Assembly: GCA_965205865.1 (NCBI GenBank)
Contig: CBDBHR010000029.1
Coordinates: 704,001 to 768,000 of the forward strand
Length of the DNA: 64,000 nucleotides
DNA from: a bacterium
GTDB taxonomy: Bacteria > SAR324 > NAC60-12
Direction: 5' to 3'
A program made the position numbers and the translations under genes. Position 1 is the stretch's first letter; every line of letters begins with the position of its first letter. The notes under the pieces are model-generated. The model had not been told where the DNA came from and made no database searches. It saw only the letters and a program-made list of their open reading frames with translations. Shown here one piece after another: positions 18,036 through 50,018 of this stretch.

Positions 18036-19083
18036 GGGGTCAGGCTTGAAAGTTTGAAACTTCAAGCAAGTATTTGACGTTTCAGTTCCTCTAATTGATT
18101 TTGGAGACCCTCGGATTCCTTCAATCGTTGTCTCAACCGGTGCACTCCAAAGCTAATCGTAGAATCGTCTCGATTGCAAACTTTTCCGACCTTCCGAATC
18201 GTTGCGGACTTCCAATCGAAAGCTAACATGCCAATCATCGCACGGGCTTCACTCAACTTTCGTGACTGCACGGCACTTCTTAATTCCTTCTCCTGCAGTT
18301 GATAAACTTGAGCCACTTGATGAATGATCCGTTCTAAAAGAGGAGGAGAGCAGGGGATGTTTTCGAGCTTCTTCAAAACCGAGGTCACAAAATGATCTTC
18401 TCCAATGATCTCTGAATGGGCAGAGCCTTTTTGAAAATTGACCGGCGAAGCAATGTTTCTCCCACTCCGGATATAATCCTCATAAAGTTTTCTGGCCTCT
18501 CCCCGTTTTGGGGAAAAGTGAGACAATCCCCAATCCGTATGCAACCATTCCAGCCGCCGCTTTCCCAAGTAAGCCAAATGGCTGCACCATGGGAAATCAA
18601 CCAACTCTTTGGCCACACCCGCTCGAATCGGATTGAGATGAATATAACGAATCAAGGCTAACAAATAGTTTTCTTGATCAACTATCAAGGCTTTATAACG
18701 TCCCTGAAATAAGTGGCCCATGCGTTTTTGCCGTTGATTGATCCAACGCGTGTAGCGAAATGAGATATTTTGCATGATCGGAGCAAGAGGGATCGCTCCC
18801 ACTTCAATGGCTAAATGGACATGATTGCTCATTAAACAAAAAGCGTGAATCCGATGATCAAAGCGTTGGTAACCTTCTTGGAGTAAGTGATAAAATTGTC
18901 GATAGTCGGGGGAACTGAAAAAAATGGGTTGCCCTCCATTGCCACGAAGCATCACATGATAAAGCGCACCAGGATAGTAAAGGCGTAGCTTACGGGCCAT
19001 CTTTAGAAACAAGCGAGAAGGAAAGTAAAATCGATTTAAAGAAAAAAATAACACTACTTTTCCAAACTTTCAAGCCTGACCCC
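18036..19083 (-). mobile_element. HUH/RAYT-type element copy 1 (1048 bp, 21-bp terminal inverted repeats)
   Basis: GGGGTCAGGCTTGAAAGTTTG ... CAAACTTTCAAGCCTGACCCC; five near-identical copies in the window. Confidence 0.92.
18062..19000 (-). CDS. Y1 HUH transposase (RAYT/TnpA-REP-like) with C-terminal DnaA-C-like HTH
   Basis: MARKLRL..YHVMLRGN, HUH motif NHVHL, GHLFQGRY, YIHLNP; C-terminal EARAMI..NRDDSTI. Confidence 0.92.
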   Translation of the reverse strand: MARKLRLYYPGALYHVMLRGNGGQPIFFSSPDYRQFYHLLQEGYQRFDHRIHAFCLMSNHVHLAIEVGAIPLAPIMQNISFRYTRWINQRQKRMGHLFQGRYKALIVDQENYLLALIRYIHLNPIRAGVAKELVDFPWCSHLAYLGKRRLEWLHTDWGLSHFSPKRGEARKLYEDYIRSGRNIASPVNFQKGSAHSEIIGEDHFVTSVLKKLENIPCSPPLLERIIHQVAQVYQLQEKELRSAVQSRKLSEARAMIGMLAFDWKSATIRKVGKVCNRDDSTISFGVHRLRQRLKESEGLQNQLEELKRQILA

Positions 19084-19515
19084 CTTTATAACTGTTATTG
19101 TAATCCTTTCTGAGATCACTGGGGGAGAATGTGGTAAATGCAGATAATCTCCCAGAACAAGCTGTAGGGTATGCTGACCCAGTTCGAGATCAATCTCTAC
19201 TTCTGTCTGTCCCAACCCGAAATGTACAATCTGATTAGTGGCTGGAAGAGATTGATCAAATGATGGCATATCACCTTCAGCCACATCGATGAGAACATGG
19301 TGATGCCCTGTATTGGGAAACTGTATGCCAGCTGGAGCAATTCCCAGCCCCTTCAGTCCAAATCGTATGGTCACTGGTGAGGTGACAACTGCCCCATCCT
19401 CAGGCGACTGGATATAGACCCTTGCATCATCTGGGGCTGGTGACCTCTCCAGTGCTTCGGCAAGTGCAATGGGAACAAAAAGAAGAAGAATCGTGATCCA
19501 TAGTATCGTTCTCAT
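19054..19515 (-). CDS. DUF4399-like exported protein; C-terminus runs into the element terminus
   Basis: Signal peptide, TGHHHVLID, HFGLGQTE, HTLQLVLGD; last residues GVRLESLEK are encoded by the inverted repeat. Confidence 0.85.
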   Translation of the reverse strand: MRTILWITILLLFVPIALAEALERSPAPDDARVYIQSPEDGAVVTSPVTIRFGLKGLGIAPAGIQFPNTGHHHVLIDVAEGDMPSFDQSLPATNQIVHFGLGQTEVEIDLELGQHTLQLVLGDYLHLPHSPPVISERITITVIKGVRLESLEK

Positions 19516-19745
19516 GGTGGTCCTTTCATATTGAATTGAATAACTCAAATATCTCATCACTCATTTTTACCTGGTTTAGATCAGGATTTAGAAAAGGTAA
19601 GCAAACCCCGAGAAAGAAGCAACGCGAAAGTTCGACCGGAGGCAAGAAGGGGGCCCAGGGTGTCATATCCTCAGGCCCCTTTTTTATTAGAGCGACTCAC
19701 AATGGCTATCGAATCATTCCGTTATGATCTTCACGAATGATTGCG

Positions 19746-20231
19746 CTAATCCCTGTCTTCACTACCATGAGACTCTCCGGAGCTTTCAGAGCCTTCAGAA
19801 CCTTCGCCACCTCCATGTCCTGTTTCTGTTCCTGTTTCCGGGTGAGCAGTCCATGTGTCAAAAGTTCCTACAGCAGCAAGTTGCACAGGTATCTTTTGTC
19901 CTGGACGAAGATCAGTTCTGGAAGTTGGTCCTAATTCAATCCCATTTGATTGATGCACTTCAACACGAACGTCATAGAGCGTTGTTGTTAAGGTATTTTC
20001 CACGGTACCTTCAAAGGCATTGATCTGGCTGTTATAAACTATGATCAACCTCATGCCATTGACAACATGGTCATACTTTTGACTCAGAGTATATCTTCCT
20101 GTCTGTTCGGCAGCATCACCTCCTTGACCTTCACCACCCGTTTCTGAAACACGTTCTCCTTGAGCACATGCGTTTAATACCAATAATGATCCTAGTAACG
20201 AGATCATTAGTACTTTAAAAACATTTTTCAT
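19746..20231 (-). CDS. Putative lipoprotein/exported protein
   Basis: Signal peptide with LNAC lipobox-like motif; Gly/Glu/Ser-rich tail. Confidence 0.7.
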   Translation of the reverse strand: MKNVFKVLMISLLGSLLVLNACAQGERVSETGGEGQGGDAAEQTGRYTLSQKYDHVVNGMRLIIVYNSQINAFEGTVENTLTTTLYDVRVEVHQSNGIELGPTSRTDLRPGQKIPVQLAAVGTFDTWTAHPETGTETGHGGGEGSEGSESSGESHGSEDRD

Positions 20232-20548
20232 AATTTCCTCATTTCAATCAGGATTGATAAACAGGACGTCGACCTTCGACATCCACTGAGGCAAGTATAA
20301 GCAATCCAATGTTTTTTGAGGGTCAACGGAGTGTAAAACTTTTGTAAATTAATTCGATCTGCATCCATCATCAATTTTTGACGGAAGCAATTGCGGAGGG
20401 ATCCGGCAACGTTGGGGTAGCCATCCTAGTCAAACTGTTTGAAATTATCTGAAAGCACCAGGCATGGATTCTCTCCACGGCCTGCCGATTCAATTAGAAA
20501 AAGGATTTTCCAAGTATTAAATGGGGTCAGGCTTGAAATTTTGAAACT

Positions 20549-21487
20549 TCAAGCAAGTATTTGACGTTTCAGTTCCTCTAATTGATTTTGGAGACCCTCG
20601 GATTCCTTCAATCGTTGTCTCAACCGGTGCACTCCAAAGCTAATCGTAGAATCGTCTCGATTGCAAACTTTTCCGACCTTCCGAATCGTTGCGGACTTCC
20701 AATCGAAAGCTAACATGCCAATCATCGCACGGGCTTCACTCAACTTTCGTGACTGCCCGGCACTTCTTAATTCCTTCTCCTGCAGTTGATTAACTTGAGC
20801 CACTTGATGAATGATCCGTTCTAAAAGAGGAGGAGAGCAGGGGATGTTTTCGAGCTTCTTCAAAACCGAGGTCACAAAATGATCTTCTCCAATGATCTCT
20901 GAATGGGCAGAGCCTTTTTGAAAATTGACCGGCGAAGCAATGTTTCTCCCACTCCGGATATAATCCTCATAAAGTTTTCTGGCCTCTCCCCGTTTTGGGG
21001 AAAAGTGAGACAATCCCCAATCCGTATGCAACCATTCCAGCCGCCGCTTTCCCAAGTAAGCCAAATGGCTGCACCATGGGAAATCAACCAACTCTTTGGC
21101 CACGCCCGCTCGAATCGGATTGAGATGAATATAACGAATCAAGGCTAACAAATAGTTTTCTTGATCAACTAACAAGGCTTTATAACGTCCCTGAAATAAG
21201 TGGCCCATGCGTTTTTGCCGTTGATTGATCCAACGCGTGTAGCGAAATGAGATATTTTGCATGATCGGAGCAAGAGGGATCGCTCCCACTTCAATGGCTA
21301 AATGGACATGATTGCTCATTAAACAAAAAGCGTGAATCCGATGATCAAAGCGTTGGTAACCTTCTTGGAGTAAGTGATAAAATTGTCGATAGTCGGGGGA
21401 ACTGAAAAAAATGGGTTGCCCTCCATTGCCACGAAGCATCACATGATAAAGCGCACCAGGATAGTAAAGGCGTGGTTTACGGGCCAT
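20549..21487 (-). CDS. Y1 HUH transposase (RAYT-like), copy 2
   Basis: Near-identical to copy 1. Confidence 0.92.
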   Translation of the reverse strand: MARKPRLYYPGALYHVMLRGNGGQPIFFSSPDYRQFYHLLQEGYQRFDHRIHAFCLMSNHVHLAIEVGAIPLAPIMQNISFRYTRWINQRQKRMGHLFQGRYKALLVDQENYLLALIRYIHLNPIRAGVAKELVDFPWCSHLAYLGKRRLEWLHTDWGLSHFSPKRGEARKLYEDYIRSGRNIASPVNFQKGSAHSEIIGEDHFVTSVLKKLENIPCSPPLLERIIHQVAQVNQLQEKELRSAGQSRKLSEARAMIGMLAFDWKSATIRKVGKVCNRDDSTISFGVHRLRQRLKESEGLQNQLEELKRQILA

Positions 21488-21559
21488 CTTTAGAAACAAG
21501 CGAGAAGGAAAGTAAAATCGATTTAAAGAAAAAAATAACACTACTTTTCCAAACTTTCA

Positions 21560-22248
21560 GTCACCGTAAAGAACTGACTTATAGTGGTTTCCAGCCACCT
21601 TTCGTCATTCCTCCGGTACAGATCCGGACGTGCGCTGCTAACGCATCCGGCTCCTGCTTCGAGTCAGACGCTCAAACGTTGCCGTTTGGCGCACCCTGCT
21701 TAAACCGCTCTCTGATTTTACGGCCTCTGAGTTCCGAACACAGGAGGGCAAGCAGAATTCCTCTCAGCCAAGTCCCTTTGCTCCACAGGCTCCGTTGATT
21801 TCCTTTGCATTGTTACTCTCTGCAAATGATCTCATTGTTCGCCGCTTCATCGCTACTACGAACTTGTCCGACTTCCTGAAGACGTAGATATCGGGGTTAT
21901 TTATTAATTTTCCCGATCCGACTACCAATAGAATGTTGACAGTCGTCTTCAGGATCTCCCAGGTTCCGATCAAGAAACTTCCACACATGCACCGGGTCTT
22001 TGACTCCGCCAGGCTGCCGAGACTCACGCTAACGCCTTCGGTTGATATTGCCTTCCCCACCAGACCACAAGGTCAGCGCCTGAAACTATGATTTCGGAGC
22101 TCAATACCGAGCCTATGTTCTCCCCTGTCAACGCTTAGCGCCTATCCTTGCGAATAACCACTCATGACTCGGGGACTCGGCGGGTCGTTACTGCCTTACC
22201 GAGTAAGAGACTTTCACTCTCTATTTCTTGCCAGCTTTCCTGGCGCAC
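21560..22248 (-). mobile_element. Group II intron copy B (class E-like), ORF-less, 689 nt
   Basis: GTGCG...GTGAC termini; same deletion junction (CAAACGTTG|CCGTTTGGCGC) as copy A. Confidence 0.92.
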
Positions 22249-22426
22249 AGCCTGACCCCCTTTTTTCCGCTCCAGCGGCTCAGATTCAGCATACTCACAC
22301 GGCCCCGACAACACATCATCACGGTAGTGATCATAGAAAGCTGCTTGATCAATGAACTTGAGATTATTGGCTGAAGACAACATAAATAGGGGAGCAGTTC
22401 GAACATAAAAATCGTTGATTCAAAGG

Positions 22427-22852: not shown

Positions 22853-22885
22853 CGAAGAGAACTACCAAAAGTGGCGAAGGTATTT

Positions 22886-23859: not shown

Positions 23860-23948
23860 GTCGAAAACAGATTGGCGGTTGGATAGATGTCGGTGGAGAT
23901 CGCCACGATACTCGATACGAAGTGTTTATTGAAGAAAATTTGGTCCCA

Positions 23949-24022: not shown

Positions 24023-24188
24023 CAAAGAGTGTCGGGTCGTAGCCGGACCAGATTTGCAACCACAAATCTGTACGTATATTCGTCCCACAGCGCACCTATT
24101 TTAATCATCTCCACCGGTCGGCTTCATCAATGTAGAGCCTATGGGATAGAGCGTTCTCTTGGGTTCGGGCCTCCACTCTCCAGGAGCT

Positions 24189-25062
24189 GTCGGGTCGGAG
24201 GAGGCGCGTTTCCGCTAGCCTCCGTCCGCCGCCCAAACCGGACATGCAGTTTTCCCGCATCCGGCTTTCACAGAGAAGTCCGTTTGCCGAAGGGACCAAT
24301 CGAAGGAATTAGTGAGATCAGATTTACTAATTTTCATCTTGTAAATCTTGTCCACTAAGGAGTGAACCTTCTTTGCTCCCGTTAGATTGATCCAGTCAGC
24401 CAGTCTCCTCGGGCCATGAGTTCTGGGTCTTTCACTTACCGAACTTTCCACCTCACTGTCCTTACTCATCTGACTTCCTTTCTCATTCCAACCTTCTCTG
24501 CCCATCGCCTTCCCCAGCTCACTCTGCTGCCGATCCCTCGGTCACGTAGCTCTCACTACGCTTCAGGTACTATTCGATGGTCCGACTACTCAACACGCTT
24601 CGGTTCCCATTTCGCTTTCGCTTATAGGGTCCCTTATCCTAGTGCCACCTAAGAACGCCCTGAGTCCTCCTGGGGTCACTCATGATTCTTCCTCACCGTG
24701 TCGTCCGCACACACCTTGGTATTGCAGGGGGGAATCCAACTGCTTTCGCCATCATAGTGCAAGCTCAACCATTCCCTGCTGTTGGCCGACCGGTTCGTCT
24801 CTGGAGTAGCCTCCTTGACTACGACCCGGTGATTCTCCGCAAACCCTTCAGATTCCACCTCACGGTGGACACCCTGTCCTCCGGAAGTTCACTTCGGTGC
24901 ATTTGGCCCTTTCGACCTCCCATTGTGCTTAAAGCGCCCGGGATGGCGCCCTGGTAAACATTCCGGCCAGCGAGGCATTACCCCCGCTTTTGGATATCAG
25001 CCTGGGATCTCAGGCTGAGTGGGACTTGAACCCACCTGAATCATGCGCTGCACAGTGCGCAC
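24189..25062 (-). mobile_element. Second group II intron type (class F-like), RT gene deleted, nested in intron C
   Basis: 5' GTGCG at 25062; DV GAAAGCCGGATGCGGGAAAACTGCATGTCCGGTTT; ends CCTCCGACCCGAC; IEP N-terminal stub KVHSLVDKIY. Confidence 0.8.
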
Positions 25063-25456
25063 TACGAACTTGTCCGAATTCCTGAAGACGTAGATATCGG
25101 GGTTATTTATTAATTTTCCCGATCCGACTACCAATGGAATGCTGACAGTCGTCTTCAGGATCTCCCAGGTTCCGGTCAAGAAACTTCCACACATGCACCG
25201 GATCTTCGACTCCGCCAGGCTCGACCGGGACTCACGCTAACGCCTTCGGTTGATGTTGCCTTCCCCACCAGACTACAAGGTCAGCACCTGAAACTATGAT
25301 TTCGGAGCTCAATACCGAGCCTATGTTCTCCCCTGTCAACGCTTAGCGCCTATCCTTACGGATAACCACCCATGACTCGGGGCCTCGGCGGGTCGTTACT
25401 GCCTTACCGAGTAAGAGACTTTCACTCTCTATTTCTTGCCAGCTTTCCTGGCGCAC
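25063..25456 (-). mobile_element. Group II intron copy C (class E-like), 5' portion only
   Basis: Matches the 5' ~394 nt of copies A/B/D; 5' exon GGGGTCAGGCT at 25457-25467. Confidence 0.88.
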
Positions 25457-25850
25457 AGCCTGACCCCCTTTTTGCAATAATCATCTAAAAAATCCGATTC
25501 TTGAAAAGAATCGCTCAATTTAGGTTATAATATCTCAAATTTCTATTTTATTATGGAACATCTACGATCTCCAGAGCATCTGGAAAACAAGAATTCAATT
25601 CCTCATGAAGTTTTTTACGAGCAACTTTTATGCAATCAAGAGATTCTAAAATGTCTTCAGGTTCTAATAAAACATCTGACGAACCTTGAGTCGAATGTCG
25701 GGCGTCTAAATTTTCCGGTTGATAATGAATTCAAAAGAAATACGGACTACATTGCTCTCAGGTTCCTTTGAAATGCTGTAAAATTTCAAAATAGTTTTTG
25801 TTTTCATTTCTTATTCGCTAGTGTCTATTTTATTTTTTGGCTTAGCTTCA

Positions 25851-27208: not shown

Positions 27209-27446
27209 TTAATTTCCCTTTCAATTTGATTCCTATTTTTTCGGTATCATACCGGCAATTTTATCCAAATTCTTGTTTATTTCTTGCAATTCCCGATATT
27301 TGGCAATCTCAATTGCCATTGGGAACGCGGTTATGATAATTAACATAATCTGTATATTTAGTTCTCAAATGCACAGAAATTTCGTGAACCATTTTTACTG
27401 CGAATTCATTATCTTTATTTAGGGTCAGGCTTGAAAGTTTGAAACT

Positions 27447-28385
27447 TCAAGCAAGTATTTGACGTTTCAGTTCCTCTAATTGATTTTGGAGACCCTCGGA
27501 TTCCTTCAATCGTTGTCTCAACCGGTGCACTCCAAAGCTAATCGTAGAATCGTCTCGATTGCAAACTTTTCCGACCTCCCGAATCGTTGCGGACTTCCAA
27601 TCGAAAGCTAACATGCCAATCATCGCACGGGCTTCACTCAACTTTCGTGACTGCACGGCACTTCTTAATTCCTTCTCCTCCAGTTGATAAACTTGAGCCA
27701 CTTGATGAATGATCCGTTCTAAAAGAGGAGGAGAACAAGGGATGTTTTCGAGCTTCTTCAAAACCGAGGTCACAAAATGATCTTCTCCAATGATCTCTGA
27801 ATGGGCAGAGCCTTTTTGAAAATTGACCGGCGAAGCAATGTTTCTCCCACTCCGGATATAATCCTCATAAAGTTTTCTGGCCTCTCCCCGTTTTGGGGAA
27901 AAGTGAGACAATCCCCAATCCGTATGCAACCATTCCAGCCGCCGCTTTCCCAAGTAAGCCAAATGGCTGCACCATGGGAAATCAACCAACTCTTTGGCCA
28001 CACCCGCTCGAATCGGATTGAGATGAATATAACGAATCAAGGCTAACAAATAGTTTTCTTGATCAACTAACAAGGCTTTATAACGTCCCTGAAATAAGTG
28101 GCCCATGCGTTTTTGCCGTTGATTGATCCAACGCGTGTAGCGAAATGAGATATTTTGCATGATCGGAGCAAGAGGGATCGCTCCCACTTCAATGGCTAAA
28201 TGGACATGATTGCTCATTAAACAAAAAGCGTTAATCCGATGATCAAAGCGTTGGTAACCTTCTTGGAGTAAGTGATAAAATTGTCGATAGTCGGGGGAAC
28301 TGAAAAAAATGGGTTGCCCTCCATTGCCACGAAGCATCACATGATAAAGCGCACCAGGATAGTAAAGGCGTGGTTTACGGGCCAT
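27447..28385 (-). CDS. Y1 HUH transposase (RAYT-like), copy 3
   Basis: Near-identical to copy 1. Confidence 0.92.
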   Translation of the reverse strand: MARKPRLYYPGALYHVMLRGNGGQPIFFSSPDYRQFYHLLQEGYQRFDHRINAFCLMSNHVHLAIEVGAIPLAPIMQNISFRYTRWINQRQKRMGHLFQGRYKALLVDQENYLLALIRYIHLNPIRAGVAKELVDFPWCSHLAYLGKRRLEWLHTDWGLSHFSPKRGEARKLYEDYIRSGRNIASPVNFQKGSAHSEIIGEDHFVTSVLKKLENIPCSPPLLERIIHQVAQVYQLEEKELRSAVQSRKLSEARAMIGMLAFDWKSATIREVGKVCNRDDSTISFGVHRLRQRLKESEGLQNQLEELKRQILA

Positions 28386-28457
28386 CTTTAGAAACAAGCG
28401 AGAAGGAAAGTAAAATCGATTTAAAGAAAAAAATAACACTACTTTTCCAAACTTTCA

Positions 28458-30414
28458 GTCACCGTAAAGAACTGACTTATAGTGGTTTCCAGCCACCTTT
28501 CGTCATTCCTCCGGTACAAATCCGGACGTGCGCTGCTAACGCATCCGGCTCCTGCTTCGAGTCAGACGCTCAAACGTTGATTCGGATACGGGTGGGTTGT
28601 CCTTACAGAAGGAATGTGTAGTTTGACCAGTACTTTGAAGCGTTCCCAGTTCATCCTCTTTGCTTTGTGACTCCTCCGTCTTAGTGATTTGAACCACGTC
28701 CGATGGATTTCCCTGCGAAAAGCATTCAAGGAACTCCGGTTGCCGGGGACTCCATAGTAGTTGTACAGACCGTTTAAAACAGACCTGAGCCATTTTCCTT
28801 GTTCATGCGCATTTTCATGACGTTTGCGTTTCGCTTCAAGTTTGATCTCTTTGAGCTTCTTTCGCAACCTTTTGGAAATGGTGAGACGGGTGAGCTTGAA
28901 TTTTCCATCCTTTATCCGAGTGTCACAGACATGAGTGAATCCTGAAAAGTCGAAACTTTCCGGTTTTCCCAGACCTTGTTTTTCCCGGTTATCGGCGGCA
29001 AATCGCCCGAACTCGATGAGGCGTGTTTTCTCTTCATGTAAAGTCAGTCCAAATTGAGAGAGGCGTTCTCTTAGTTGGCGATTAAATTTCTGGCCATCTT
29101 CAGAATATTGAAAACCCACGACAAAATCATCCGCATAGCGAATGATGTAAACTTCCCCCCGAGCTTCCCGCCTTCTCCATTGATTAACCCATAGATCTAA
29201 AACATAGTGCAGGTAGATATTTGAATAGATTGGAGACACTACCGAACCTTGTGGTGTTCCGACCACCGTTTCAGACCACTTCCCCTCTTCGATGACTCCG
29301 GCGCGCAACGTTTTCTCTGCTAAACGCAGAATCCTTTTGTCGGAGATTCGATGCTCGATAAATTTCAGCATCCAATCATGCTGAATTGTGTCGAAAAATC
29401 CTTGAATATCCGCATCTAAGATGTAGCTCACTTTCCGTTGGGTAATGGCCACATACAAAGCGTCTAAGGCTTGATGTTGGCTTCGTCCGGGTCGGAACCC
29501 GTAACTAAACCCAAGGAAATCCTCCTCATAGATCGATTCCAACGTCCAAACAAGGGCTTGTTGTACGATCTTGTCTTCAAGTGCGGCTATTCCGATTGGC
29601 CTTTGACGGCCATCCGGTTTAGGAACCCACACTCGCAGAGAAGGGTGAGGACGATAACGTTCTTGGTGGATCCTCCCGTGCAGATCGTTAATCCGCTCCA
29701 GGAGATTTATGCCATACTCATTCCAGGTCTCCTCGTCCACTCCCGCCGCTGAGTTGCGATTGAGATCAAAGTAAGCTCTCCGCAGTAAGTCAGGGTTGAT
29801 GTGATGAAAGAGATTGTTGAATTGAAGATGGGGGTTCCTCTTCGCCCTTTGGCGCACCCTGCTTAAACCGCTCTCTGATTTTACCGGCCTCTGAGTTCCG
29901 AACACAGGAGGGCAAGCAGAATTCCTCTCAGCCAAGTCCCTTTGCTCCACAGGCTCCGTTGATTTCCTTTGCATTGTTACTCTCTGCAAATGATCTCATT
30001 GTTCGCCGCTTCATCGCTACTACGAACTTGTCCGACTTCCTGAAGACGTAGATATCGGGGTTATTTATTAATTTTCCCGATCCGACTACCAATAGAATGT
30101 TGACAGTCGTCTTCAGGATCTCCCAGGTTCCGATCAAGAAACTTCCACACATGCACCGGGTCTTTGACTCCACCAGGCTCAGCCGAGACTCACGCTAACG
30201 CCTTCGGTTGATATTGCCTTCCCCACCAGACCACAAGGTCAGCGCCTGAAACTATGATTTCGGAGCTCAATACCGAGCCTATGTTCTCCCCTGTCAACGC
30301 TTAGCGCCTATCCTTGCGAATAACCACTCATGACTCGGGGACTCGGCGGGTCGTTACTGCCTTACCGAGTAAGAGACTTTCACTCTCTATTTCTTGCCAG
30401 CTTTCCTGGCGCAC
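28458..30414 (-). mobile_element. Group II intron copy D, full length (class E-like)
   Basis: GTGCG start, DV/DVI, AC end, intact IEP. Confidence 0.95.
28562..29989 (-). CDS. ltrA: Group II intron reverse transcriptase/maturase, no endonuclease domain
   Basis: PKPDGRQRPIGI, FSYGFRPGRS, GTPQG, RYADDF; X/thumb domain ending HPYPNQRL; no HNH domain. Confidence 0.95.
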   Translation of the reverse strand: MQRVTMQRKSTEPVEQRDLAERNSACPPVFGTQRPVKSESGLSRVRQRAKRNPHLQFNNLFHHINPDLLRRAYFDLNRNSAAGVDEETWNEYGINLLERINDLHGRIHQERYRPHPSLRVWVPKPDGRQRPIGIAALEDKIVQQALVWTLESIYEEDFLGFSYGFRPGRSQHQALDALYVAITQRKVSYILDADIQGFFDTIQHDWMLKFIEHRISDKRILRLAEKTLRAGVIEEGKWSETVVGTPQGSVVSPIYSNIYLHYVLDLWVNQWRRREARGEVYIIRYADDFVVGFQYSEDGQKFNRQLRERLSQFGLTLHEEKTRLIEFGRFAADNREKQGLGKPESFDFSGFTHVCDTRIKDGKFKLTRLTISKRLRKKLKEIKLEAKRKRHENAHEQGKWLRSVLNGLYNYYGVPGNRSSLNAFRREIHRTWFKSLRRRSHKAKRMNWERFKVLVKLHIPSVRTTHPYPNQRLSV

Positions 30415-30527
30415 AGCCTGACCCCCTTTATTTTCTTGCCGAAGGATAGAATTTGTAGGATGCTATAGTGGCAGTATTGAAATAAAAGAAGAAAAAGCGG
30501 CTGTTGGTCTTTGCTGGAGGGAAGATG

Positions 30528-31167: not shown

Positions 31168-31332
31168 TACGCCTCCCGATTTAACTCTTCCACACTATTC
31201 TGATTTTAAACGAATGTTTATTAACAATTCAAATGTTAAGTAATCTTTTATTTTTTCAAAGCTTAAATTGCAAATTATTTATAAGCTTAAGGATATTTCA
31301 ACTTTGAACTGGTGAAAAAAATCAAACTATCA

Positions 31333-32579
31333 CCTAAATCCTGCAATTAGATGACAATCAAACATGGAAATGGTAATATACTCAAATAGTTAACAGCAGA
31401 ATCAACATTTTAAGAGATCACCATTTCCATGAAAAACAAAGGTAGCGCAAGATCGGCAAGAACGACAGCAAAAAACATCCATATCAGCCAGGGAGGCAGA
31501 GACCTGACCGCGCAAGCAGGCTTGATTCCGGTTGTCAAATTTTTTCACAAAGAAGGGATTGTTTCAAAGACAGAGCAGACCGTAGATCATCGGCGTGGCG
31601 CCACGGGTCTTTATGACGCGGTGGACATGGTCATTTTGTCGGTGGTCGGCATTGTTGGTGGCGCCCGTTCGATTCGTTCGATTGTGACAGTTTGGAACGA
31701 CCGTGTTTTGAGTCGTGTGGCCGGTTGGCTGAGGATTCCGGATGAAACCACATTCGGCCGGATACTGCGTACTTTCACACAGAAAAACATCAATGAGATG
31801 GAGAGCTTGAACCATCGGATTCGAGCCGGTATCTGGCGTAAGGCGCTTCGAAGTGGGACAAGCATCGTTGGGGTGTTACACTGTCTTGTGATTGACGTGG
31901 ACTCCACTGTGAAAACGGCCTACGGCAAGCAGCAAGGAGTGTCTGTCGGATATAATCCCCACAAACGCGGTGCAGCTTCGTATCATCCTCTGCTGGCATT
32001 TTGCGCAGAGACAAAGGAGATTCTTCAGGGTTGGCTTCGTGATGGGAGTGCCTATACCAGCAATGGAGTCGTTGAATTCATGCGGCAACTTCTCGCTCAC
32101 CTTCCAAATCGGACTCGCACTCTGTTTCGTGGAGACAGTGGTTTTTTTGTGGGGGATTTGCTGGATTTCCTCGAAGAACGAGGCCATGGCTATCTGATCA
32201 AGGTCAAACTCAAGGGGCTTGTCTCGTTGTTGGAAACCCAAAAATGGCAAAAAGTGAAGGGGCAGCCCGCTTGGGAAGGGTGTGAGTTTTCCCACCAATG
32301 TGAAACTTGGAGGAGGTCAAGAAAATTCATGGCCGTACGCAGGGAGAAAGAGGAGGAACTCAAAGGGATGGCCACCCTCTTTGAGATGAAGGAGTACGAT
32401 TATTTTTGTTATGTTCTCACTGACGCGCTCACTCCCTGGCAGGCTCACAAAGAGTATGGCCAAAGGGCGGTCGCTGAGACATGGATTGAGGAAGCAAAAA
32501 ATCAAACTGCGCTGGCTCAGATTAAAACCGACGATTTTTGGGCCAACAGTGCCTTGTTCCAATGCGCGATACTCGCTTA
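31333..32579 (+). mobile_element. IS1380-family element, 3'-truncated by RAYT element copy 4 (transposase 31429-32598)
   Basis: LTAQAGL, IDVDST, YHPLLAF, RGDSGF; identity with the 11256 copy stops at CTCGCTTA. Confidence 0.9.
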
Positions 32580-32584
32580 TAAAT

Positions 32585-33632: not shown

Positions 33633-33748
33633 CTTTCTATGGAATGGGGAGGTAGTATACCGCGCATTTTTTGTGTTAAAACGGACTTGCCAGAACATAG
33701 GGGCGTTCGGAATCATGGCGCTGTGGCCAAATGAGAGGGCCTGGTTTT

Positions 33749-37278: not shown

Positions 37279-38591
37279 TAGCTAGTGCTCAGTTGAGCCC
37301 ACGGACCGCCTTGAAACCCGGCGCCAACCATCGCCTGTTCAGTCCAAGCACCGGCCGTCCCATAGATATTCTGCGTCTTGTCCGCAACAAGGAGCATCTC
37401 CCCGCCGTCCTTCCCTGCTTTGCGGAGAGTCTGCCACCAGTTAAGTCTGAAATCCTGGCCCTCATCTACCAGAATAGCGTCGTAAAAAAGCGGTGTGGTC
37501 CCACTATCCTGACTTTGGCCGTTGTATATCCGCTGCACGAGCTGCGCCATACGGTTCTCCAACACAGCATTTGTCGATAGCTCCCTGTCCTCCGATGAAT
37601 CCCCCCAGAGTTCCTTGTAAGCTTGCTCATGTCCCGTAGCCAAGCAAACTCGCTTACACCAAGAATGAAAGTTGAGAAAAGTAATCCGTCTTCTGACAAC
37701 TCGCTGCCTTCCCACGTGTCTGGCAGCTAGATCGCGTAAGTAGTTCAATAGGGTGATGTTGAATGAGCATACAAGAACCTCTTTGCCTTCAGTGGCAAGC
37801 TCAGCCGAACGTGCTGCGAGAACCAAACTCTTGCCCGATCCAGCAGGCCCCTTGAGGCGCCGGTAACCTGATGATGTTCGAGTCGTTGCAAGCCGACGCT
37901 GTTGATTGTTCATTTCAAGCGGTTCTCGTTGTTCTCGGCTGAAGGCCGGCTCTTTCAGCCAACCCCGAAGGTCATTCGCAGTATCCTCACACATGGATTT
38001 CGATGAAGTGCGCCACCACTCTGGGAACAGATGGGCAATGTTGCCCGACTGGACGTCGTCTGAACCGGATAACGGGTAATATTGCGGATATTTGGCTATT
38101 CCATCGTCTCTATCCCGAAACGGAGCAAATAGCTTCTGCACTTGTGCTCGGGGAGACCGAGTGAAAATGATGCCTGCGGTAATCACTGCCAGTCCAGAAT
38201 TGTCCTTCAGCCTGGGACAGTACAAGCCAAACAGCTCATCCTTATAGAGCCGTATCTTGTTAACCGGATTATCACACTGTCGGCTGAATGAGTTGCCAGA
38301 CTTTTGACGTGCCATCAGCCGCGGTTCTCCAGTCCCGCTGTAGTCCACGTAGTAGTCGAGAGCAGTCAGATCCCAATCTTTGACCTCAAACACAGCGATG
38401 CCAGCATTAGGGTTGAGGAGGACAAAATCGGGCCGTAGACCATTCAGGTGCGGTTGGATGTACATCTCCCACTCATTGGGCAACTTATCGTCGAACAACT
38501 CGGCAACCGTACACTCTCCGGTAGTGAGCGTTGTCAGTAATCTATCCCACTGTTCTCTTGGCGGGTCAATGAGTCGAGACATACCGTTCTA

Positions 38592-40460
38592 TCAGGGTGT
38601 TATGAGGGTGTCTCCAGAGCCTGAGACCCGGCTGTCTTCCTGCACCAGTTCGTACTTCTTAGGGGCCTCATCGGGATCCTCGATATCGTCCGAGGCGATC
38701 TGTTTGCCCATCACTGTCTGAATCCTGTCGAGGAGCACCAACTGCCGACTGTTGAAGTACTCAACGAAATCGTCTGACCGGAGGTGAGCAGGATCGATAA
38801 AGTGCGACTTAAGGTAGCCGTCCAGAACGTCTCGAGGAACACTATACTTGCCCGACTCGATACGCACGAGATACTCACTAGGAGAATCTCCTCCGATGAT
38901 GCGGTTGGTTCGCGCCGTAAGCGGTGTTTTGTTTATGATCGAGTCGCAGCATCCGGGCTTAATGCCATGATCGTGGCACCACTTCTGTGGAAAGACATGA
39001 TGAATGTCAATGCTCTCGTCAAAGTAGCTCTGTATGGACGACTTTTCGCCAGTCAACCAATCTTTTGCGCCTTCGCGCAGTAGAAGCGCATATACGCCCT
39101 TGTATGCGGCACTGTTTCGCGTGCGCAGTGTCCGCAACCGGGCGGGAGTGAATTCCGCATCATAGATGGTACCCGGATCCGGCCCGCCACCCCGTATCCA
39201 GCTCAGGACTTCAGGGAGGTCGTGGGAAAACCGCGTCTCGATTGAGCCTCCGTAGAGCTCTCCCAGCACGCCGCACCAGTACCATCGTGCGAGCTTTTCT
39301 TTCGCAGGGAACGACTCCCAATCCTGATCAAGAACCGTGAGGATCGCTGCCAGTGGTATCAGTTGACTGCCGTACGGTAGGAATCTCGCGTCATACAAGT
39401 GCTGAGAATGGAGGAATCTCGCCGCTCTCTCAAAGCCCTGCATCAACGGGTCAGCCCACCACTGGTACTCGTCCAGTCCTAGCCGCAGCATATCCGAGCG
39501 CTTGCATCCTATGCCGGGAGCCCGGTCCTCGTCCGTTCCATTGTGAAGGGCGACATTTCGGCGCTCCAGGGTAGCAAGTAAAGTCACAGCCTGAAGAAAA
39601 TCCGTATTGGAGACACCCGAGAGGATCGACCGGCAGTGGATTTTACACTCCCGCCTCTCCCAATCCGGCCTTAGTTGAAAGTTGTCCGCAGCGAAAGTCG
39701 CTGTCAGAAGCTCAAACACTGTCAGCGTCACGCCACCGGTATTTACTTTCTCGAAGACTTGGCAGACCGCCTCCTTTGGCGTGTCCTTGTCAAGCTCAAT
39801 GACCGGCACCTGGTATTGCTCGAATCGCTTGACGATTTTGCCATTGAAATCAATCCAAAATTTGATCTTTTCCTTATCGAAGTCCCAGAATTCTTGGAAA
39901 CCCACCATCCAGTCGTCCGTATCGAACACCTTGGAAAAGGGAAACATCATTGCCTCGTACTCTCGCTCTGGGGTCGAGTAGTCTTTAACTACATCCCGTC
40001 CGAACCTCTTGATCTGCCACTCCTCAGGCAGGGAAATTACCGCTTCTTCCCGATCACCATTAGCGTTCAGCGCCATCTGCATGTCTATGTAGTACCACCG
40101 TTTGATCTTTCTCCCACGTTGGTCACGGGTGCGTACCGGTCGGTCAAGACGCAGGGACTGGAAGAGCGATGTGAGTCGCTGTTGCCCGTCGAGGATGAGC
40201 CGTTCTGCCTTCTGCTCTCCCGGCGCTGGCGCACCCTCTAAGGGGCGTTGCTTGAAGCGAATGGTCTCACCTCCCGCTCTGAGCATCATCACAGCGCCGA
40301 TCGGGTAGCTCAGGGAAATACTCGCGAGCAAGCTTCGGACGTGATCGTCATCCCAGACCCACCCCCGCTGGAATTCAGGCAATTGCGTCCTCCCGTCCGC
40401 TGCCTCGCCGAGCATCCCGTCAAGTGATTCCTTCTCAATGCCAAATGTCTTTATGTTCAT
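38592..40460 (-). CDS. DUF262 domain protein with C-terminal His-Me finger (GmrSD-like)
   Basis: LPEFQRGWVW, ILDGQQRLT, FEKVNTGG, DIHHVFP..N..N. Confidence 0.9.
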   Translation of the reverse strand: MNIKTFGIEKESLDGMLGEAADGRTQLPEFQRGWVWDDDHVRSLLASISLSYPIGAVMMLRAGGETIRFKQRPLEGAPAPGEQKAERLILDGQQRLTSLFQSLRLDRPVRTRDQRGRKIKRWYYIDMQMALNANGDREEAVISLPEEWQIKRFGRDVVKDYSTPEREYEAMMFPFSKVFDTDDWMVGFQEFWDFDKEKIKFWIDFNGKIVKRFEQYQVPVIELDKDTPKEAVCQVFEKVNTGGVTLTVFELLTATFAADNFQLRPDWERRECKIHCRSILSGVSNTDFLQAVTLLATLERRNVALHNGTDEDRAPGIGCKRSDMLRLGLDEYQWWADPLMQGFERAARFLHSQHLYDARFLPYGSQLIPLAAILTVLDQDWESFPAKEKLARWYWCGVLGELYGGSIETRFSHDLPEVLSWIRGGGPDPGTIYDAEFTPARLRTLRTRNSAAYKGVYALLLREGAKDWLTGEKSSIQSYFDESIDIHHVFPQKWCHDHGIKPGCCDSIINKTPLTARTNRIIGGDSPSEYLVRIESGKYSVPRDVLDGYLKSHFIDPAHLRSDDFVEYFNSRQLVLLDRIQTVMGKQIASDDIEDPDEAPKKYELVQEDSRVSGSGDTLITP

Positions 40461-40953
40461 TACACCTCCTCAACGATTCCGACTATTGTTACCTAGTGAT
40501 TTTCTGAGGCCCTCTATGAAGAGGAACCGGGAAGCATATCCCGCAAAAGGCTGAAATGGCTCTCGGCCATATAGGGACAGGAATGCCCTCATTACATTGA
40601 CGTCTATGGGGAACGCGTCCAAGCACCTCAAGTCGAACAAGGCCACGCAATGTTGTAGTAGTTACTATGTAAACCAGACAGTCTCCGAGGGTTGTGATAA
40701 AAATGAAGTTTTACATATTACAAACAACCTCTTTTAGAGGAGACTGTCATGAAAAAGGATAACATTGAATCATTATCAGGTCAACCCCTTTTTGTTGGCA
40801 TTGGCGTGCATAAGAAGATTTTTCACGTAACCTTTCGGAGCTTTGATTGCGAGATGACCACTCCTTCAATTGCTTCTCAAATATTTGAACACGCCATAGC
40901 CCCCTTTGCCGCTTGATTCGTCTCTGACGTACTGAATGGGGATTATCTGAAAT

Positions 40954-42001
40954 GGGGTCAGGCTTGAAAGTTTGAAACTTCAAGCAAGTATTTGACGTTT
41001 CAGTTCCTCTAATTGATTTTGGAGACCCTCGGATTCCTTCAATCGTTGTCTCAACCGGTGCACTCCAAAGCTAATCGTAGAATCGTCTCGATTGCAAACT
41101 TTTCCGACTTCCCGAATCGTTGCGGACTTCCAATCGAAAGCTAACATGCCAATCATCGCACGGGCTTCACTCAACTTTCGTGACTGCCCGGCACTTCTTA
41201 ATTCCTTCTCCTGCAGTTGATAAACTTGAGCCACTTGATGAATGATCCGTTCTAAAAGAGGAGGAGAGCAGGGGATGTTTTCGAGCTTCTTCAAAACCGA
41301 GGTCACAAAATGATCTTCTCCAATGATCTCTGAATGGGCAGAGCCTTTTTGAAAATTGACCGGCGAAGCAATGTTTCTCCCACTCCGGATATAATCCTCA
41401 TAAAGTTTTCTGGCCTCTCCCCGTTTTGGGGAAAAGTGAGACAATCCCCAATCCGTATGCAACCATTCCAGCCGCCGCTTTCCCAAGTAAGCCAAATGGC
41501 TGCACCATGGGAAATCAACCAACTCTTTGGCCACACCCGCTCGAATCGGATTGAGATGAATATAACGAATCAAGGCTAACAAATAGTTTTCTTGATCAAC
41601 TAACAAGGCTTTATAACGTCCCTGAAATAAGTGGCCCATGCGTTTTTGCCGTTGATTGATCCAACGCGTGTAGCGAAATGAGATATTTTGCATGATCGGA
41701 GCAAGAGGGATCGCTCCCACTTCAATGGCTAAATGGACATGATTGCTCATTAAACAAAAAGCGTTAATCCGATGATCAAAGCGTTGGTAACCTTCTTGGA
41801 GTAAGTGATAAAATTGTCGATAGTCGGGGGAACTGAAAAAAATGGGTTGCCCTCCATTGCCACGAAGCATCACATGATAAAGCGCACCAGGATAGTAAAG
41901 GCGTAGCTTACGGGCCATCTTTAGAAACAAGCGAGAAGGAAAGTAAAATCGATTTAAAGAAAAAAATAACACTACTTTTCCAAACTTTCAAGCCTGACCC
42001 C
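40954..42001 (-). mobile_element. HUH/RAYT-type element copy 5 (1048 bp)
   Basis: Both inverted repeats intact. Confidence 0.92.
40980..41918 (-). CDS. Y1 HUH transposase (RAYT-like), copy 5
   Basis: Near-identical to copy 1. Confidence 0.92.
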   Translation of the reverse strand: MARKLRLYYPGALYHVMLRGNGGQPIFFSSPDYRQFYHLLQEGYQRFDHRINAFCLMSNHVHLAIEVGAIPLAPIMQNISFRYTRWINQRQKRMGHLFQGRYKALLVDQENYLLALIRYIHLNPIRAGVAKELVDFPWCSHLAYLGKRRLEWLHTDWGLSHFSPKRGEARKLYEDYIRSGRNIASPVNFQKGSAHSEIIGEDHFVTSVLKKLENIPCSPPLLERIIHQVAQVYQLQEKELRSAGQSRKLSEARAMIGMLAFDWKSATIREVGKVCNRDDSTISFGVHRLRQRLKESEGLQNQLEELKRQILA

Positions 42002-42002
42002 C

Positions 42003-43531
42003 TATGAAAATAAGCGTATTGAAGCTCTCGAAACAGAAAATAAGCAACTTCGGGATCAGTTGGCTCTCAACAGCCAAAACTCAAGTAAACCTCCTTCCAC
42101 CGATCAAAGTCGAAAGAACAAAAGCTTACGTAAAAGCAGGGGTCGCTCTCGCGGAGGTCAACCCGGTCATAGAGGCCATCATTTGGCTTTCAGTGAATCA
42201 CCGGATCAGGTGGAGTCCCATTCTCCCAGCACCTGTGAAACCTGTGGAGAAGATTTATTCCAGGTGGTGGTTGAGGCCAGGCATAAACGCCAAGTGTTTG
42301 ATCTTTCCCCGCTCCAATTAGAGGTCACCGAGCACCAGGTGGAACAAAAAATTTGTCCCTGCTGCCGGCATCTGAATCACTCGAGCTTTCCAGCAGGGAT
42401 AGAGGCACCCACTCAATATGGTCCCCGGATCAAAGGCTTAGCGGTTTATCTCAATCAATATCAGTTTCTGCCCTTTGATCGATGCCAGCAATTCTTTGAG
42501 GATCTGTTCGGCCAGCCGCTCAATGCGGCCACGATTTATGCCAGCCTCCAGCAAGCCGCCCATAGGCTTTATCCCTTCCAACAACAAGTGGCTGAAGCTC
42601 TGATTCAAGCGGAGGTGGTTCATTTTGATGAAACCTCTCTGTTTGAAAACAAACAACGTCGCTGGCTTCATTCAGCCTCTACCGAAGAGCTGACCTTTTA
42701 TTTTATCCACGACAAACGGGGTCAAGCCGGAATGGATGCCGCCGGTATCCTGCCTCAGTTTGAAAAGACAGCCATTCATGATCACTGGGAGAGCTACCAG
42801 CATTATGAGTGTGATCATGGCTTTTGCAATGCGCATCATTTACGTGAACTCACTCGGGCCTATCAACAAGAAAAGGCCTTGTGGGCTCAGGAGATGAGCG
42901 ACTTACTGGTAGAGATCAAAAAGCAAGTAGACCAAGCCAAGTTCAAAGAACAATCTGCTTTGAATCCAGTCCAACTAGATCACTTCCGGCAACGCTATCG
43001 TGATATCACCCAAGAAGCCCTTGAGCTCTATCCTCCCCCTCCTCAAACAAAGAAACGAGGACGCCCCAAACAGAGCAAAGCCAAAAATTTACTCGATCGC
43101 TTGATCCTCTATGAAAAGGAAACCTTGTTATTCATGGATGACTTCCGGGTTCCTTTTGACAACAACCAAGCCGAGCGAGATGTGCGCATGGTTAAACTGA
43201 AACAAAAAATCTCCGGCGGCTTTCGAACGGCTGAAGGATCTCAGGCTTTTTGTATCATCCGGGGAGCCATTTCCACTACCAGAAAACAGGGAAAATCCAT
43301 CCTCGATTTGCTCACTCAGGCTTTGCATCCTCTGGCAACTCCTTTATAATTAAGGTCCCCATAAAGGACCTAAATATACTGTGAACATATGATTTCTTCA
43401 TTTTTTTGTCATCCTGAGGGAACCGAAGGATCTTCTTGATTCCCATGAGATTCTTGCTTAGGCAGCCCCTTTAGCTCGGAATGACAGGAATTTTGAAAAG
43501 TGAAATTTAAACCCGTTCAGAGTATAGTTAC
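42003..43531 (+). mobile_element. IS66-family (ISBst12-type) element, left end lost; transposase ORF 42060-43349
   Basis: NSSKPPSTD, GGQPGH, HFDET, CNAHHLREL, FDNNQAERDVR; right end CCTAAATA[MITE]GTTAC. Confidence 0.9.
43377..43524. mobile_element. 148-bp MITE with TA duplication and internal palindrome
   Basis: TACTGTGAAC...GTTCAGAGTA; removal restores CCTAAATAGTTAC; inverted copy at 48211-48357. Confidence 0.85.
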
Positions 43532-44520
43532 TTTTTTTTTTGAATCCCGCATTTATTTTGCCTTGGGGGGTTGACATTGGGTTGTTGTGCTAGGATCATG
43601 CCATTATTGAGTTGTTTTGGTGACAGAGAAGGTTCCCGATTGATTGAACAATATCGTGAGAGGAATTGAAAACGATTGATCTTCCCCGGGAATCTTTTTT
43701 AATGATATTTAACTAAACGGGTTTTTCAGAGACCTAAATAGTTACGCTCAAATTACAACAATTTCTCGGAAAAATCCACCGCAACAGCAAGAGGACTGAT
43801 GCCTGAAACCGATCAACGTGATGAAGAACAACTGAAAGAGATCCTTGATCAATCCTCGATGAGGAACCGCACGTTGTTTATCGCCTTTCTTTTCCTTCTG
43901 ATCTATATCATGTTTGTCGTGTGGAGCACCACGGACCGGCAATTATTTATTCCTGACAGCACAATCAATCTACCCCTGGTGAATATCTCCTCCTCCCTGT
44001 TCGGCTTCTATTTGATGATCCCCATTATTCTGTGGGCCGTGCATTTCAATTTATTGTTCAATCTCAAGCGTCATCAAATAAAGCTGACCCGTTGGCTCGA
44101 ATACAGTTCTGAGAAGGATGAGATACGGCTTTTGCCCTTTCTTTTCAATTATACCCACATACTTGGCAGCAGTCCGGATTCCCGGTTACTGCGGTTTATC
44201 CTATCGATCCTGATCTATGTGTTGCCTCCAGGGATCTTACTTTGGATTCAAATTCGCTTTTCAGCATATCAAAGCATAGAGATGAGCGGGTTTCATTTTG
44301 TGGTGTTCTGTTTGGATATTGTGATTTTGACTCTTTATTGGGATCAAATTTTTCCTCAAAATCAAAAGAATGAGAATGTAGTCGACCAAATCAGAATACA
44401 GTGGACAAACGATTTCATGAGTTTTCTGATCATTTTGATTGTTTGCGGAAGCGCCTTTAATTTCTGGGGTACCTGTACAATCATTTTTTCTCCACAGTCT
44501 CTGGAGGCATTTTATAAAAA

Positions 44521-48559: not shown

Positions 48560-48560
48560 T

Positions 48561-48800
48561 ACTCCTGAAATACGAGGAAAGTGTGATATTGAAAAATCAC
48601 GTGCGAAACAAGTCAGAGACTTCGTCATTGATTTACATTCACAAGCAACAAAGATCGATTTAAAAGACTGCGAACATGGTAAATATTTTCGCTTGGTCTG
48701 TGATGTTTTTCTTGATGGAGAAAATTTATCTGAAATTCTAATCGAACGAGGTTATGCCAGAAAGTATGATGGTGGCAAACGAGAATCCTGGTGTAACTGA
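48561..48800 (+). pseudogene. Thermonuclease (SNase) family C-terminal fragment
   Basis: Manual translation TPEIRGKC..GKYFRLVCDVFLDG..ARKYDGGKRESWCN*; N-terminus replaced by the IS end. Confidence 0.75.
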
Positions 48801-48913
48801 ATAATGACTTGCCATGCGCTGATGATTAATGGGTACGTCGCATTCCCATCCTCCAATTGGCGCATGGCTACTCTAGCGAGAAATCTTGAATGGAAAAAAC
48901 GAACGAATCATTT

Positions 48914-48938
48914 TTTGCAAACTTGCAAGCCTGACCCC
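48914..48938 (-). repeat. Orphan divergent RAYT-element terminus
   Basis: Reverse complement reads GGGGTCAGGCTTGCAAGTTTGCAAA. Confidence 0.8.
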
Positions 48939-50018
48939 ATTTCTGCTGAACATTGTCACTCGGTCCAGGGATGAGTTGGTCATTTCCATCGATGGGCAGT
49001 GGGGTGAAGGGAAAACGACCTTCGTCAAGATGTGGCGGGGATTGTTGGGCGAGCACAATATTCCCAGCATTTACATTGATGCCTTCGCCAACAACTATTC
49101 CGATGACGCGTTCATTGTGATAGCCAGTGCAATCACGGAGTTTGTCGAAAAAAACATCAGCAAAGACAATTGCGAGAAAGTTGCCGAGTTGAAGGAAAAA
49201 ACCAAGCGCGTTGGCATCCAGTTGCTCTCCTGGTCAGCGAGAGTGGGTATCAAGGCCGTAACGCTGGGAATCATCAAGGATACCGACTTAAAGGCACTCG
49301 GTGCCATGAAAGACGAGATTGCGAAAGACGTATCCGGATGGGTCGGGGAACTTATCGAGGAACGTCTCGATGCCCATTCAATAGAGATGGATCTCTTTGA
49401 ATCTTTTCGAGATCTCCTCTCTTCCATTCCTGCAAAACTGGAGGGCTCGGAAGGCAATCCTCTTGTGGTCATCCTGGATGAGTTGGACCGTTGCAAGCCA
49501 ACGTTCGCAGTCGATGCCGTCGAAAAAATCAAGCATTTGTTTTCGGTACAAAACGTCGTCTTCGTGCTTGTGATGAATAGAGTACAGTTGGAGCAGTCCG
49601 TCAAGATTGTCTATGGCCAGGAATTGGATGCCCTTACCTATTTGCAGAAATTCATCAACCTCAAGACAAGAATACCAAAAAGATTGAGTGGCCAGTATTT
49701 AAGTGATGCAAGCAAATACATTTAAAATCAGTTGGGATAATCTCGCATTCGCTTGGGCTAATCGATTTCTTGCTTCATTGTATTCATCTAACATTTCCCG
49801 AGTCTCTCTAGTCATTTCAATGCTCATCCCCCCTTTGTTCTTATCTCTAATTTTTTGCTAATGGTAACCATTTTTTTCGTAAGTGTCAAGCTTTTTCTGC
49901 AAAAAAGTATCCGTAAAATTCAATTTGAAAAAACAGTTGACTTTTGCGTCCAATGGTATAATTTAAGTACTATAAACAACTCAATCAATCTGATAATCCC
50001 ACAAAAAGAAAAAATAAT

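Follow-up and report, generated by a model that had tools for sequence, protein, structure and literature searches.

A 64,000-nucleotide stretch from a bacterium of the SAR324 lineage (GTDB lineage Bacteria; SAR324; NAC60-12; assembly GCA_965205865.1, contig CBDBHR010000029.1, positions 704,001 to 768,000), referred to here in its full length as the window, carries several copies of a TIRtron, an element assigned from its domains and repeats, which combines an HUH/Y1 transposase (TIRYT) with a DnaA-like tail and GGGGTCAGG repeats. Comparison with related sequences points, with a probability of roughly two in three, to a same-orientation array in which the HUH tyrosine transposase nicked each end and linked it separately to a new partner. 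The DNA next to the element has likely been deleted, duplicated and reshuffled rather than cleanly entered. The class of element is known; its end position, junctions and products, as read from the sequence, appear to be the new part.

The source genome (G000; 30 contigs, 92% complete, repeat-rich) was compared with a single-contig relative from the same genus (G001), of which 1.68 of 4.26 Mb were covered, in stretches chosen partly for their repeat content. Self-comparison of the window revealed 5 copies of approximately 1.05 kb within 24 kb, which are 99.2% to 99.5% identical, have all their genes on the minus strand and are the only ones in the source genome above 77% identity; gene-less derivatives are numerous there. 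Copies 1, 4, and 5 carry the inverted repeats GGGGTCAGGCTTGAAA on either side; in copies 2 and 3 the repeats are split by introns. The TIRtron features are as follows, the pad being the few bases outside the GGGG of the repeat core:

18032..19087, minus strand: copy 1, 1,056 bp from pad to pad, repeat cores at 18036 (+) and 19083 (-)
18062..19054, minus strand: TIRYT open reading frame (ORF) of copy 1, 330 amino acids, likely start ATG at 19000, with Y1_Tnp and Bac_DnaA_C domains, H78-V-H80 and Y137
20519..22263, minus strand: copy 2, right repeat interrupted by an ORF-less group II intron (21560-22248)
27417..30429, minus strand: copy 3, A replacing G in the left core, right repeat holding a full group II intron
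32580..33636, minus strand: copy 4, with a 5-nt left pad
40950..42005, minus strand: copy 5, from the self-comparison
24186..25471, minus strand: lone right end, core at 25467 and pad at 25468-25471, carrying an intron 5' part and a nested intron
48856..48942, minus strand: lone end of another repeat subfamily (TTGCAAG), core at 48938 and pad at 48939-48942
13332..14122, no strand assigned: gene-less mini-element flanked on the left by a cut repeat, containing an ORF-less intron (13405-14096) and showing an 11-nt stutter of its end (14112-14122)

The TIRYT matches the Pfam families Y1_Tnp (PF01797, E 3e-14) and Bac_DnaA_C (PF08299, E 8.5e-8), and H78, H80, and Y137 are invariant in all 9 rows of the alignment. 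The top match of the predicted fold (mean pLDDT 76) is TnpA-REP of Escherichia coli (4ER8), and the tail aligns in Foldseek with the DnaA DNA-binding domains 3PVP and 1J1V (target TM 0.84-0.86); a sequence search of the PDB returned the DnaA domain alone, as a weak match.

We catalogued 203 element ends in the source genome, compared with 6 in its reversed sequence, and 68 in the covered part of G001 (271 in total); the exact motif GGGGTCAGGC occurs 145 times in the source genome, with approximately 7 expected. The end position was read from 40 ends with a repeat-free homologue of the flank, picked blind to the last 12 bases. The match to these homologues is 0.80-0.93 at positions -12 to -6, falls to 0.62 at -5 and amounts to 0.25-0.45 from -4 to -1. 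Because identity drops only from -4 or -5 inward, a pad of 4 nt (at times 5) outside the GGGG moves together with the end, which gives a length to the suspicion of the earlier note that the real ends reach a few bases further. A second set, of 31 resolved junctions, demanded a homologue match up to -5 and is thus biased, leaving the 40-end profile as the unbiased test; microhomology is absent from 21 of these 31. The pad is A-rich yet variable (consensus 65%-86% at -4 to -2 versus 84%-100% in the core): left pads of the window copies read TAAAT (3 copies), GAAAT and TATTT, and right pads CTTT (4 copies) and CTAT. The adjoining base, at -5, shows a weak preference (G at 101 and A at 62 of the 203 source-genome ends). 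The C|T cleavage rule of TnpA-REP was sought at the targets and not seen, the bias being a purine followed by G or T on the repeat strand.

Genes cut at these ends were judged against intact homologues in G001, G007, and P0002 and against other copies in the source genome. Truncations had been noted earlier at 5 termini of the window; all are real and coincide with the element ends, with breakpoints (19087/8, 22263/4, 32579/80, 42005/6, and 48942/3) lying 3-4 nt farther out than first placed, and a sixth, at 18031/2 in the left flank of copy 1, had been overlooked.

17979..18031, plus strand: gene cut after 17 codons, intact in G001 (frame 249055-249768), which we take to be PaiB-like
19088..19515, minus strand: DUF4399 gene without its final codon and stop; the G001 orthologue ends in ITVIE and a stop
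22264..22420, minus strand: N-terminal remnant of a DDE-type transposase, cut by the right end of copy 2
31332..32579, plus strand: copy of an IS1380-family insertion sequence (IS), cut at 32579, compared with 29 other copies
42006..43745, plus strand: IS66-family copy without its left end, compared with the intact copy at C26:131308
48943..49725, plus strand: KAP NTPase remnant without 29 N-terminal residues, beginning exactly at the pad

The DUF4399 match to G001 ends at 19088, from where the frame reads into the repeat. The remnant at 22264 comprises the first approximately 45 codons of a gene whose homologue in G007 continues for approximately 450 amino acids, and the intact IS66 has approximately 150 more gene bases upstream of the equivalent of 42006. 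The TAAAT at 32580 is foreign to IS1380, as had been suspected: all 29 other copies read CAACAC, where here TAAAT, a 5-nt pad, is followed by GGGG. The KAP homologue P0002 (88% identical, 455 amino acids) has 29 additional N-terminal residues, which were not found in the source genome; homologues in 45 genomes of the family are too distant to place the breakpoint. The remainder of the DDE-type transposase and the rest of the gene cut at 18031 are likewise absent from the source genome. Left and right flanks of a copy do not rejoin into one gene, those of copy 1 mapping to G001 positions 249188 and 633773. The earlier note had asked whether the missing halves lie beside other termini: the IS1380 and IS66 halves adjoin no catalogued end in the source genome (0/2), and 1 doubtful case was found among the 31 resolved junctions. 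For the flanks at 20518, 27416, 30430, 33637, and 40949, no homologue was found that reaches the junction. The KAP gene is split once more, its C-terminal part (50783-51259) lying past a Clp-protease-like ORF (49726-50783).

Across both genomes, 74 pairs of ends delimit elements (58 in the source genome and 16 in G001), of which 29 are informative, i.e., have a flank within a repeat or orthologue of known continuation. None of the 29 is clean, which extends to both genomes the earlier claim that no empty site can be rebuilt. With the same script, 10 of the 23 informative copies of 4 other families of IS and miniature inverted-repeat transposable elements are clean (Fisher p 7e-5); these controls include a 152-bp mini-element with ordinary short target duplications (43374-43526 and 48209-48360 in the window; 20 full copies). 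Duplications of at least 4 nt at the pad boundary are absent from all 74 pairs, and with pads of 0-6 nt no short target duplications above chance were found in them. As a source of empty sites, a plasmid collection gave 2 distant matches only; a scan of genome contigs returned 2 loci, both corresponding to places in G001. In pairs whose two flanks fall at a single locus, the gaps are +49, +59, and approximately +380 to +590 bp, the last depending on the paralogue. The losses of 49-59 bp surround elements of 60-100 bp; the 49-bp loss, relative to the source genome, is at a mini-element directly 3' of a polyphosphate kinase gene (L016:16634-16722; G001 2516634). The same ends also make duplications: stutters of the end, and one 125-bp segment of the flank repeated directly around a single mini-element (A-B-element-B-C). 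Since only one element lies between the 2 copies, the duplication suggests that its 2 ends were joined at different places in one event, a pattern unlike clean insertion followed by one later end reaction. Pair 72, with an apparent gap of 7-23 bp, was set aside as a low-complexity repeat.

The stutters are direct copies of an end's own start: GGGGTC recurs within 41 nt outside the end at 28 of the 271 ends (about 2 expected), with an identical pad, rare pads included, in 20 of the 28 (1.9 expected), whereas the inverted motif is found in the outer flank of only 1 of the 271. Units are mostly 10-12 nt and reach approximately 40 nt. Longer inward copies measure 140, 317, and 338 nt, and partial copies lie at distances of 3.3 and 4.5 kb. 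In many stutters the copy breaks off 6-8 nt inside the repeat. By GC skew, 11 are leading, 7 lagging and 5 flat, the skew being noisy in this rearranged genome. Stutters occur in other families of the phylum too. A metagenome scan for them gave at least 152 matches at at least 123 loci, 2 of which overlap (L192/L193); among the matches listed, 34 have a TIRYT match or an opposite repeat, and the other 118 are mostly unrelated. Perfect tandems make up 19 of the 34, and among these listed matches 12 of the 19 have an offset of 7-10 nt. In perfect stutters of the source genome the copy extends exactly 4 nt beyond the GGGG in 11 of 16 cases. The offset thus looks lineage-specific, at 4 nt here and 7-10 nt elsewhere.

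Contigs from 4 runs were compared with the window: X3, which is possibly the source sample, X5, X6, and X8, an independent sample from another study. One X8 contig joins the pad end at 19087 to position 19531, 443 bp farther out, with the DUF4399 gene removed; another contig of the same run has the 19088 form. Furthermore, X8 has new flanks on the left and on the right as well as a double stutter, exactly at 18031, 18032, and 19087. The new right flank corresponds to an uninterrupted type I methyltransferase-like site in the source genome (C28:168103), and the second new flank was not found in that genome (92% complete). The window itself contains a type I methyltransferase-specificity gene (59493-62018) with a 93% paralogue at C28:167106-169465, the X8 TIRtron end lying in the C28-like allele. 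X8 cover is zero at 22308-23509 and 30722-31322, and these intervals were not used as evidence. The earlier note had proposed that one-ended strand transfer causes adjacent deletions or fragment capture. Adjacent deletion is supported by the absence of clean pairs, by the X8 end lying 443 bp outward and by missing halves that do not adjoin other ends, whereas the evidence for capture is indirect and consists of 3 restriction-modification modules described below.

The strongest competing explanation, which we regard as unlikely, is that the elements inserted cleanly without target duplication, as IS200/IS605 do, and that later adjacent deletions, as with IS150 and IS903, erased the empty sites. 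Adjacent deletions often remove target duplications and grow with time, according to the text consulted of PMC11708052; the X8 joint resembles such a second-step deletion, and the genome is decayed. However, not one of the 29 informative pairs is clean, 99%-identical recent copies included, the 125-bp duplication requires 2 ends at different places in the first event, and the stutters are ends reacting singly.

It is improbable that the enzyme merely binds or nicks while host repair or template switching at stalled forks makes the junctions, the ends falling into pre-existing breaks. It has been suggested that IS can enter DNA breaks and leave no target duplication (PMC11708052, in the part consulted), the target preference is weak, and stutters ending 6-8 nt into the repeat resemble the product of a stalled polymerase. 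Against such a process stand an element side fixed at -4, the lack of microhomology in 21 of 31 junctions and a lineage-specific offset.

Same-type ends 0.4-30 kb apart lie on the same strand in 79 of 90 pairs; at distances above 100 kb the figure is 35 of 71, and IS1380 gives 7 of 14, these pairs being non-independent. An array at 1.09-1.12 Mb in G001 consists partly of repeated element-plus-flank units. Homologous recombination between copies may help to build the array, and 99% identity in one orientation would favour RecA deletions; that plain recombination between ordinary insertions shuffled the flanks is nevertheless slightly less probable still than host repair, because it cannot yield stutters of 10-40 nt, losses of 49-59 bp or the 125-bp duplication, the missing halves lie beside no other end, and zero clean copies are left. 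Assembly mis-joins at the repeat, for which the 30 contigs and many repeats of the source genome might speak, are hardly credible, given that contigs from other runs span the junctions at 19088 or 20518 or terminate there (X5 18043-19256, X3 19601-20546, X8 19058-19560, and X6 20392-20725), that breaks at a fixed -4 would be unexpected and that the single-contig G001 has the same pattern.

Separate nicking and joining of each end, the reading that we prefer, also faces evidence that weighs against it, beyond the decay and the likeness of the X8 joint to a second-step deletion. That 443-bp joint is seen in a single contig, whose short side measures 30 nt, and the right end of any copy is a possible donor. 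Of the control elements, 13 of 23 are likewise not clean and background decay is therefore substantial; a deletion at 17841-17978 has breaks free of the repeat. Of the 74 pairs, 29 are informative, and in 4-5 the two flanks share a reference. The counts of end pairs and of stutters are non-independent, the preference at -5 is weak, and the offset is not absolute, as the 5-nt pad at 32580 and the altered core of copy 3 attest. No excised circle was seen, and polarity is ambiguous in sequence data, since a 3'-OH end with a 5'-linked target would leave the same scars. At 17841-17978, genes of 291 and 124 amino acids are largely deleted relative to G001, which we regard as background decay.

The events at independently joined ends could proceed as follows. 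The DnaA-like tail would bind the repeat as double-stranded DNA, and the tyrosine would nick one strand at -4, keeping the 5' end of the element, while the free 3'-OH of the flank would prime synthesis into the element. The 5' end kept by the enzyme would then be sealed to an available 3'-OH: one just inside would give a stutter and one outside an adjacent deletion, whereas 2 unrelated 3'-OH for the 2 ends would produce an insertion accompanied by a deletion or by a long duplication. A single reaction would in this way account for every type of scar. Element and neighbouring DNA might form circles that re-enter at a resident copy, via TIRYT or host recombination, and give rise to IS26-like arrays. 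An element side fixed at -4 without microhomology, together with the lineage-specific offset, argues for a covalently held end. Cleavage by HUH enzymes yields a 5'-phosphotyrosine together with a free 3'-OH, and nicking, priming and rejoining have been proposed for the amplification of bacterial interspersed mosaic elements (BIMEs), as far as the consulted part of PMC3333891 goes. We tentatively suggest, at somewhat less than even odds, an undescribed mode of movement, in which a DnaA-like domain steers an HUH enzyme to double-stranded inverted repeats, the nick is made at a lineage-specific distance outside each repeat and the ends are joined independently, with a replicative intermediate of reverse polarity, never a clean site, and the build-up of IS26-like arrays from captured genes, restriction-modification and other defence modules among them.

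Several known classes were considered for the element and rejected. IS200/IS605 elements lack terminal inverted repeats and insert precisely at a fixed short target, whereas here terminal repeats are present, none of the 29 informative insertions is clean and the target bias is weak. IS26 relies on a DDE enzyme with coupled target cutting and an 8-bp duplication, and we know of no pad or end stutter in it; IS6/IS26 and other DDE elements were set aside because the DDE domain is absent and none of the 74 pairs has a duplication of at least 4 nt. IS91, ISCR, and Helitron elements have unlike ori and ter ends and one active strand, and IS91/ISCR transposases belong to a larger Y2 or Y1 rolling-circle family, whereas both TIRtron ends are alike, inverted and scarred, and Pfam gives Y1_Tnp only. 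A REPtron (TnpA-REP) assignment was rejected as well: the flanks are inverted repeats, the right end folds at -1.5 kcal/mol and the GTAG foot is absent.

Likenesses to these systems, as described in the portions of the cited articles that were available, are nonetheless evident. TnpA-REP and its repetitive extragenic palindromic (REP) sequences and BIMEs share the fold, the 5'-phosphotyrosine and a nick-prime-rejoin model put forward for tandem copies and flank capture, with a GTAG-footed single-strand hairpin and cleavage at C|T (PMC3333891); TIRtrons differ from it by their inverted repeats, their DnaA-like domain and the lack of a C|T target rule. IS608 and ISDra2, peel-and-paste elements of IS200/IS605, share the HUH/Y1 enzyme and the absence of target duplication, and IS91/ISCR/Helitron, named in the same article, the HUH chemistry, one-ended events and neighbour capture (PMC3333891). 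In IS26 translocatable units and pseudo-compound arrays, gene segments lie between direct copies and new units enter beside a resident copy (PMC4196232, PMC7885326). TIRtrons and TIRYTs (PMC3733652, 2013) correspond to TnpA-Y1 subclass 2.1.2 (PMC6006769) and to group 1 of the REP-associated tyrosine transposases (RAYTs; PMC5581495), of which TIRYTs are the largest group, with 150 species (PMC5581495). Published TIRtrons have the same HUH/Y1 and Bac_DnaA_C domains, GGGG[AT][CG]A[CG] inverted repeats, dispersed dimers, clusters and some duplicated copies; the 4-nt pad, the absence of clean insertion, the variable loss and duplication, the stutters and the same-orientation arrays go beyond these accounts, as far as their accessible text extends. 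Our literature search found no TIRtron end position, target, junction analysis or mechanism in the texts it covered; it did not extend to subscription papers or to the supplements of PMC3733652 and PMC6006769, where analyses of the flanks might be found.

Three restriction-modification modules (XcyI-like, type ISP, and SfiI-like) adjoin ends in both genomes, where their neighbours and repeat subfamilies differ; for the XcyI-like module, the breakpoints in the 2 genomes are about 9 nt apart. PADLOC matched 22 of 134 low-copy ORFs near ends at 20 selected loci of the source genome, a figure without a control from that genome, and in G001 7 of 80 near ends versus 0 of 48 near other IS (p 0.045, with operons non-independent). 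Defence modules beside ends suggest capture or co-location and are not proof of movement. Modules lying between ends, at L098 (C30:260001-280000 of the source genome), L095, L099, L108, and L109, include PDC-M11, an SfiI-like restriction-modification system, PDC-S35 with a TIR domain, an XcyI-like restriction-modification system, type ISP, AbiE, and DarTG. Between copies 4 and 5 of the window lies a further segment with PADLOC matches, which was not found in G001 with these queries:

37278..40460, minus strand: NERD+UvrD and GmrSD-like genes

Elsewhere in the window, an IS at 34226-35043 is polymorphic, being missing from one contig of X3, in which 34226 is joined to 35043 with 7 other letters, and a pentapeptide-repeat gene with 60-bp tandem units lies at 46300-47265.

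The TIRtron repeat is also the home of a predicted group II intron, represented in the window by:

28458-30414: full group II intron in the right repeat of copy 3, with its reverse transcriptase at 28562-29989
21560-22248, 13405-14096, and 25063-25456 (5' part): ORF-less or partial intron copies
approximately 24186-25062: second, ORF-less group II intron, nested near nucleotide 400 of the first

Its class was assigned from the GTGCG...AY ends, 4 Rfam matches to RF02005 and the Pfam domain RVT_1. The insertion point follows GGGGTCAGGCY, about 37 of 41 5' exons in the source genome are repeat-like, and AGCCTG at intron nucleotide 236, the putative exon-binding site 1 (EBS1), is complementary to CAGGCT of the exon. 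The same intron was found in G001, and the nested arrangement recurs at C28:326613 and C30:654281. The block at 24.2-25.1 kb was considered as rRNA and rejected in favour of the nested intron. RmInt2 similarly homes into the inverted repeats of a transposon, ISRm17 (PMC4615759, in the part available); its target is a single DDE IS, whereas the one here is common to several subfamilies of an HUH element.

The scars described here define a cut position, the expected products and a set of intact recent copies, making the HUH movement of an element with inverted ends directly testable. If each end is indeed joined separately, TIRtrons would be drivers of deletion, duplication and gene shuffling overlooked by annotation because no target duplication is left, and the stutters would be an in vivo trace of the nick-prime-rejoin model for REP amplification.

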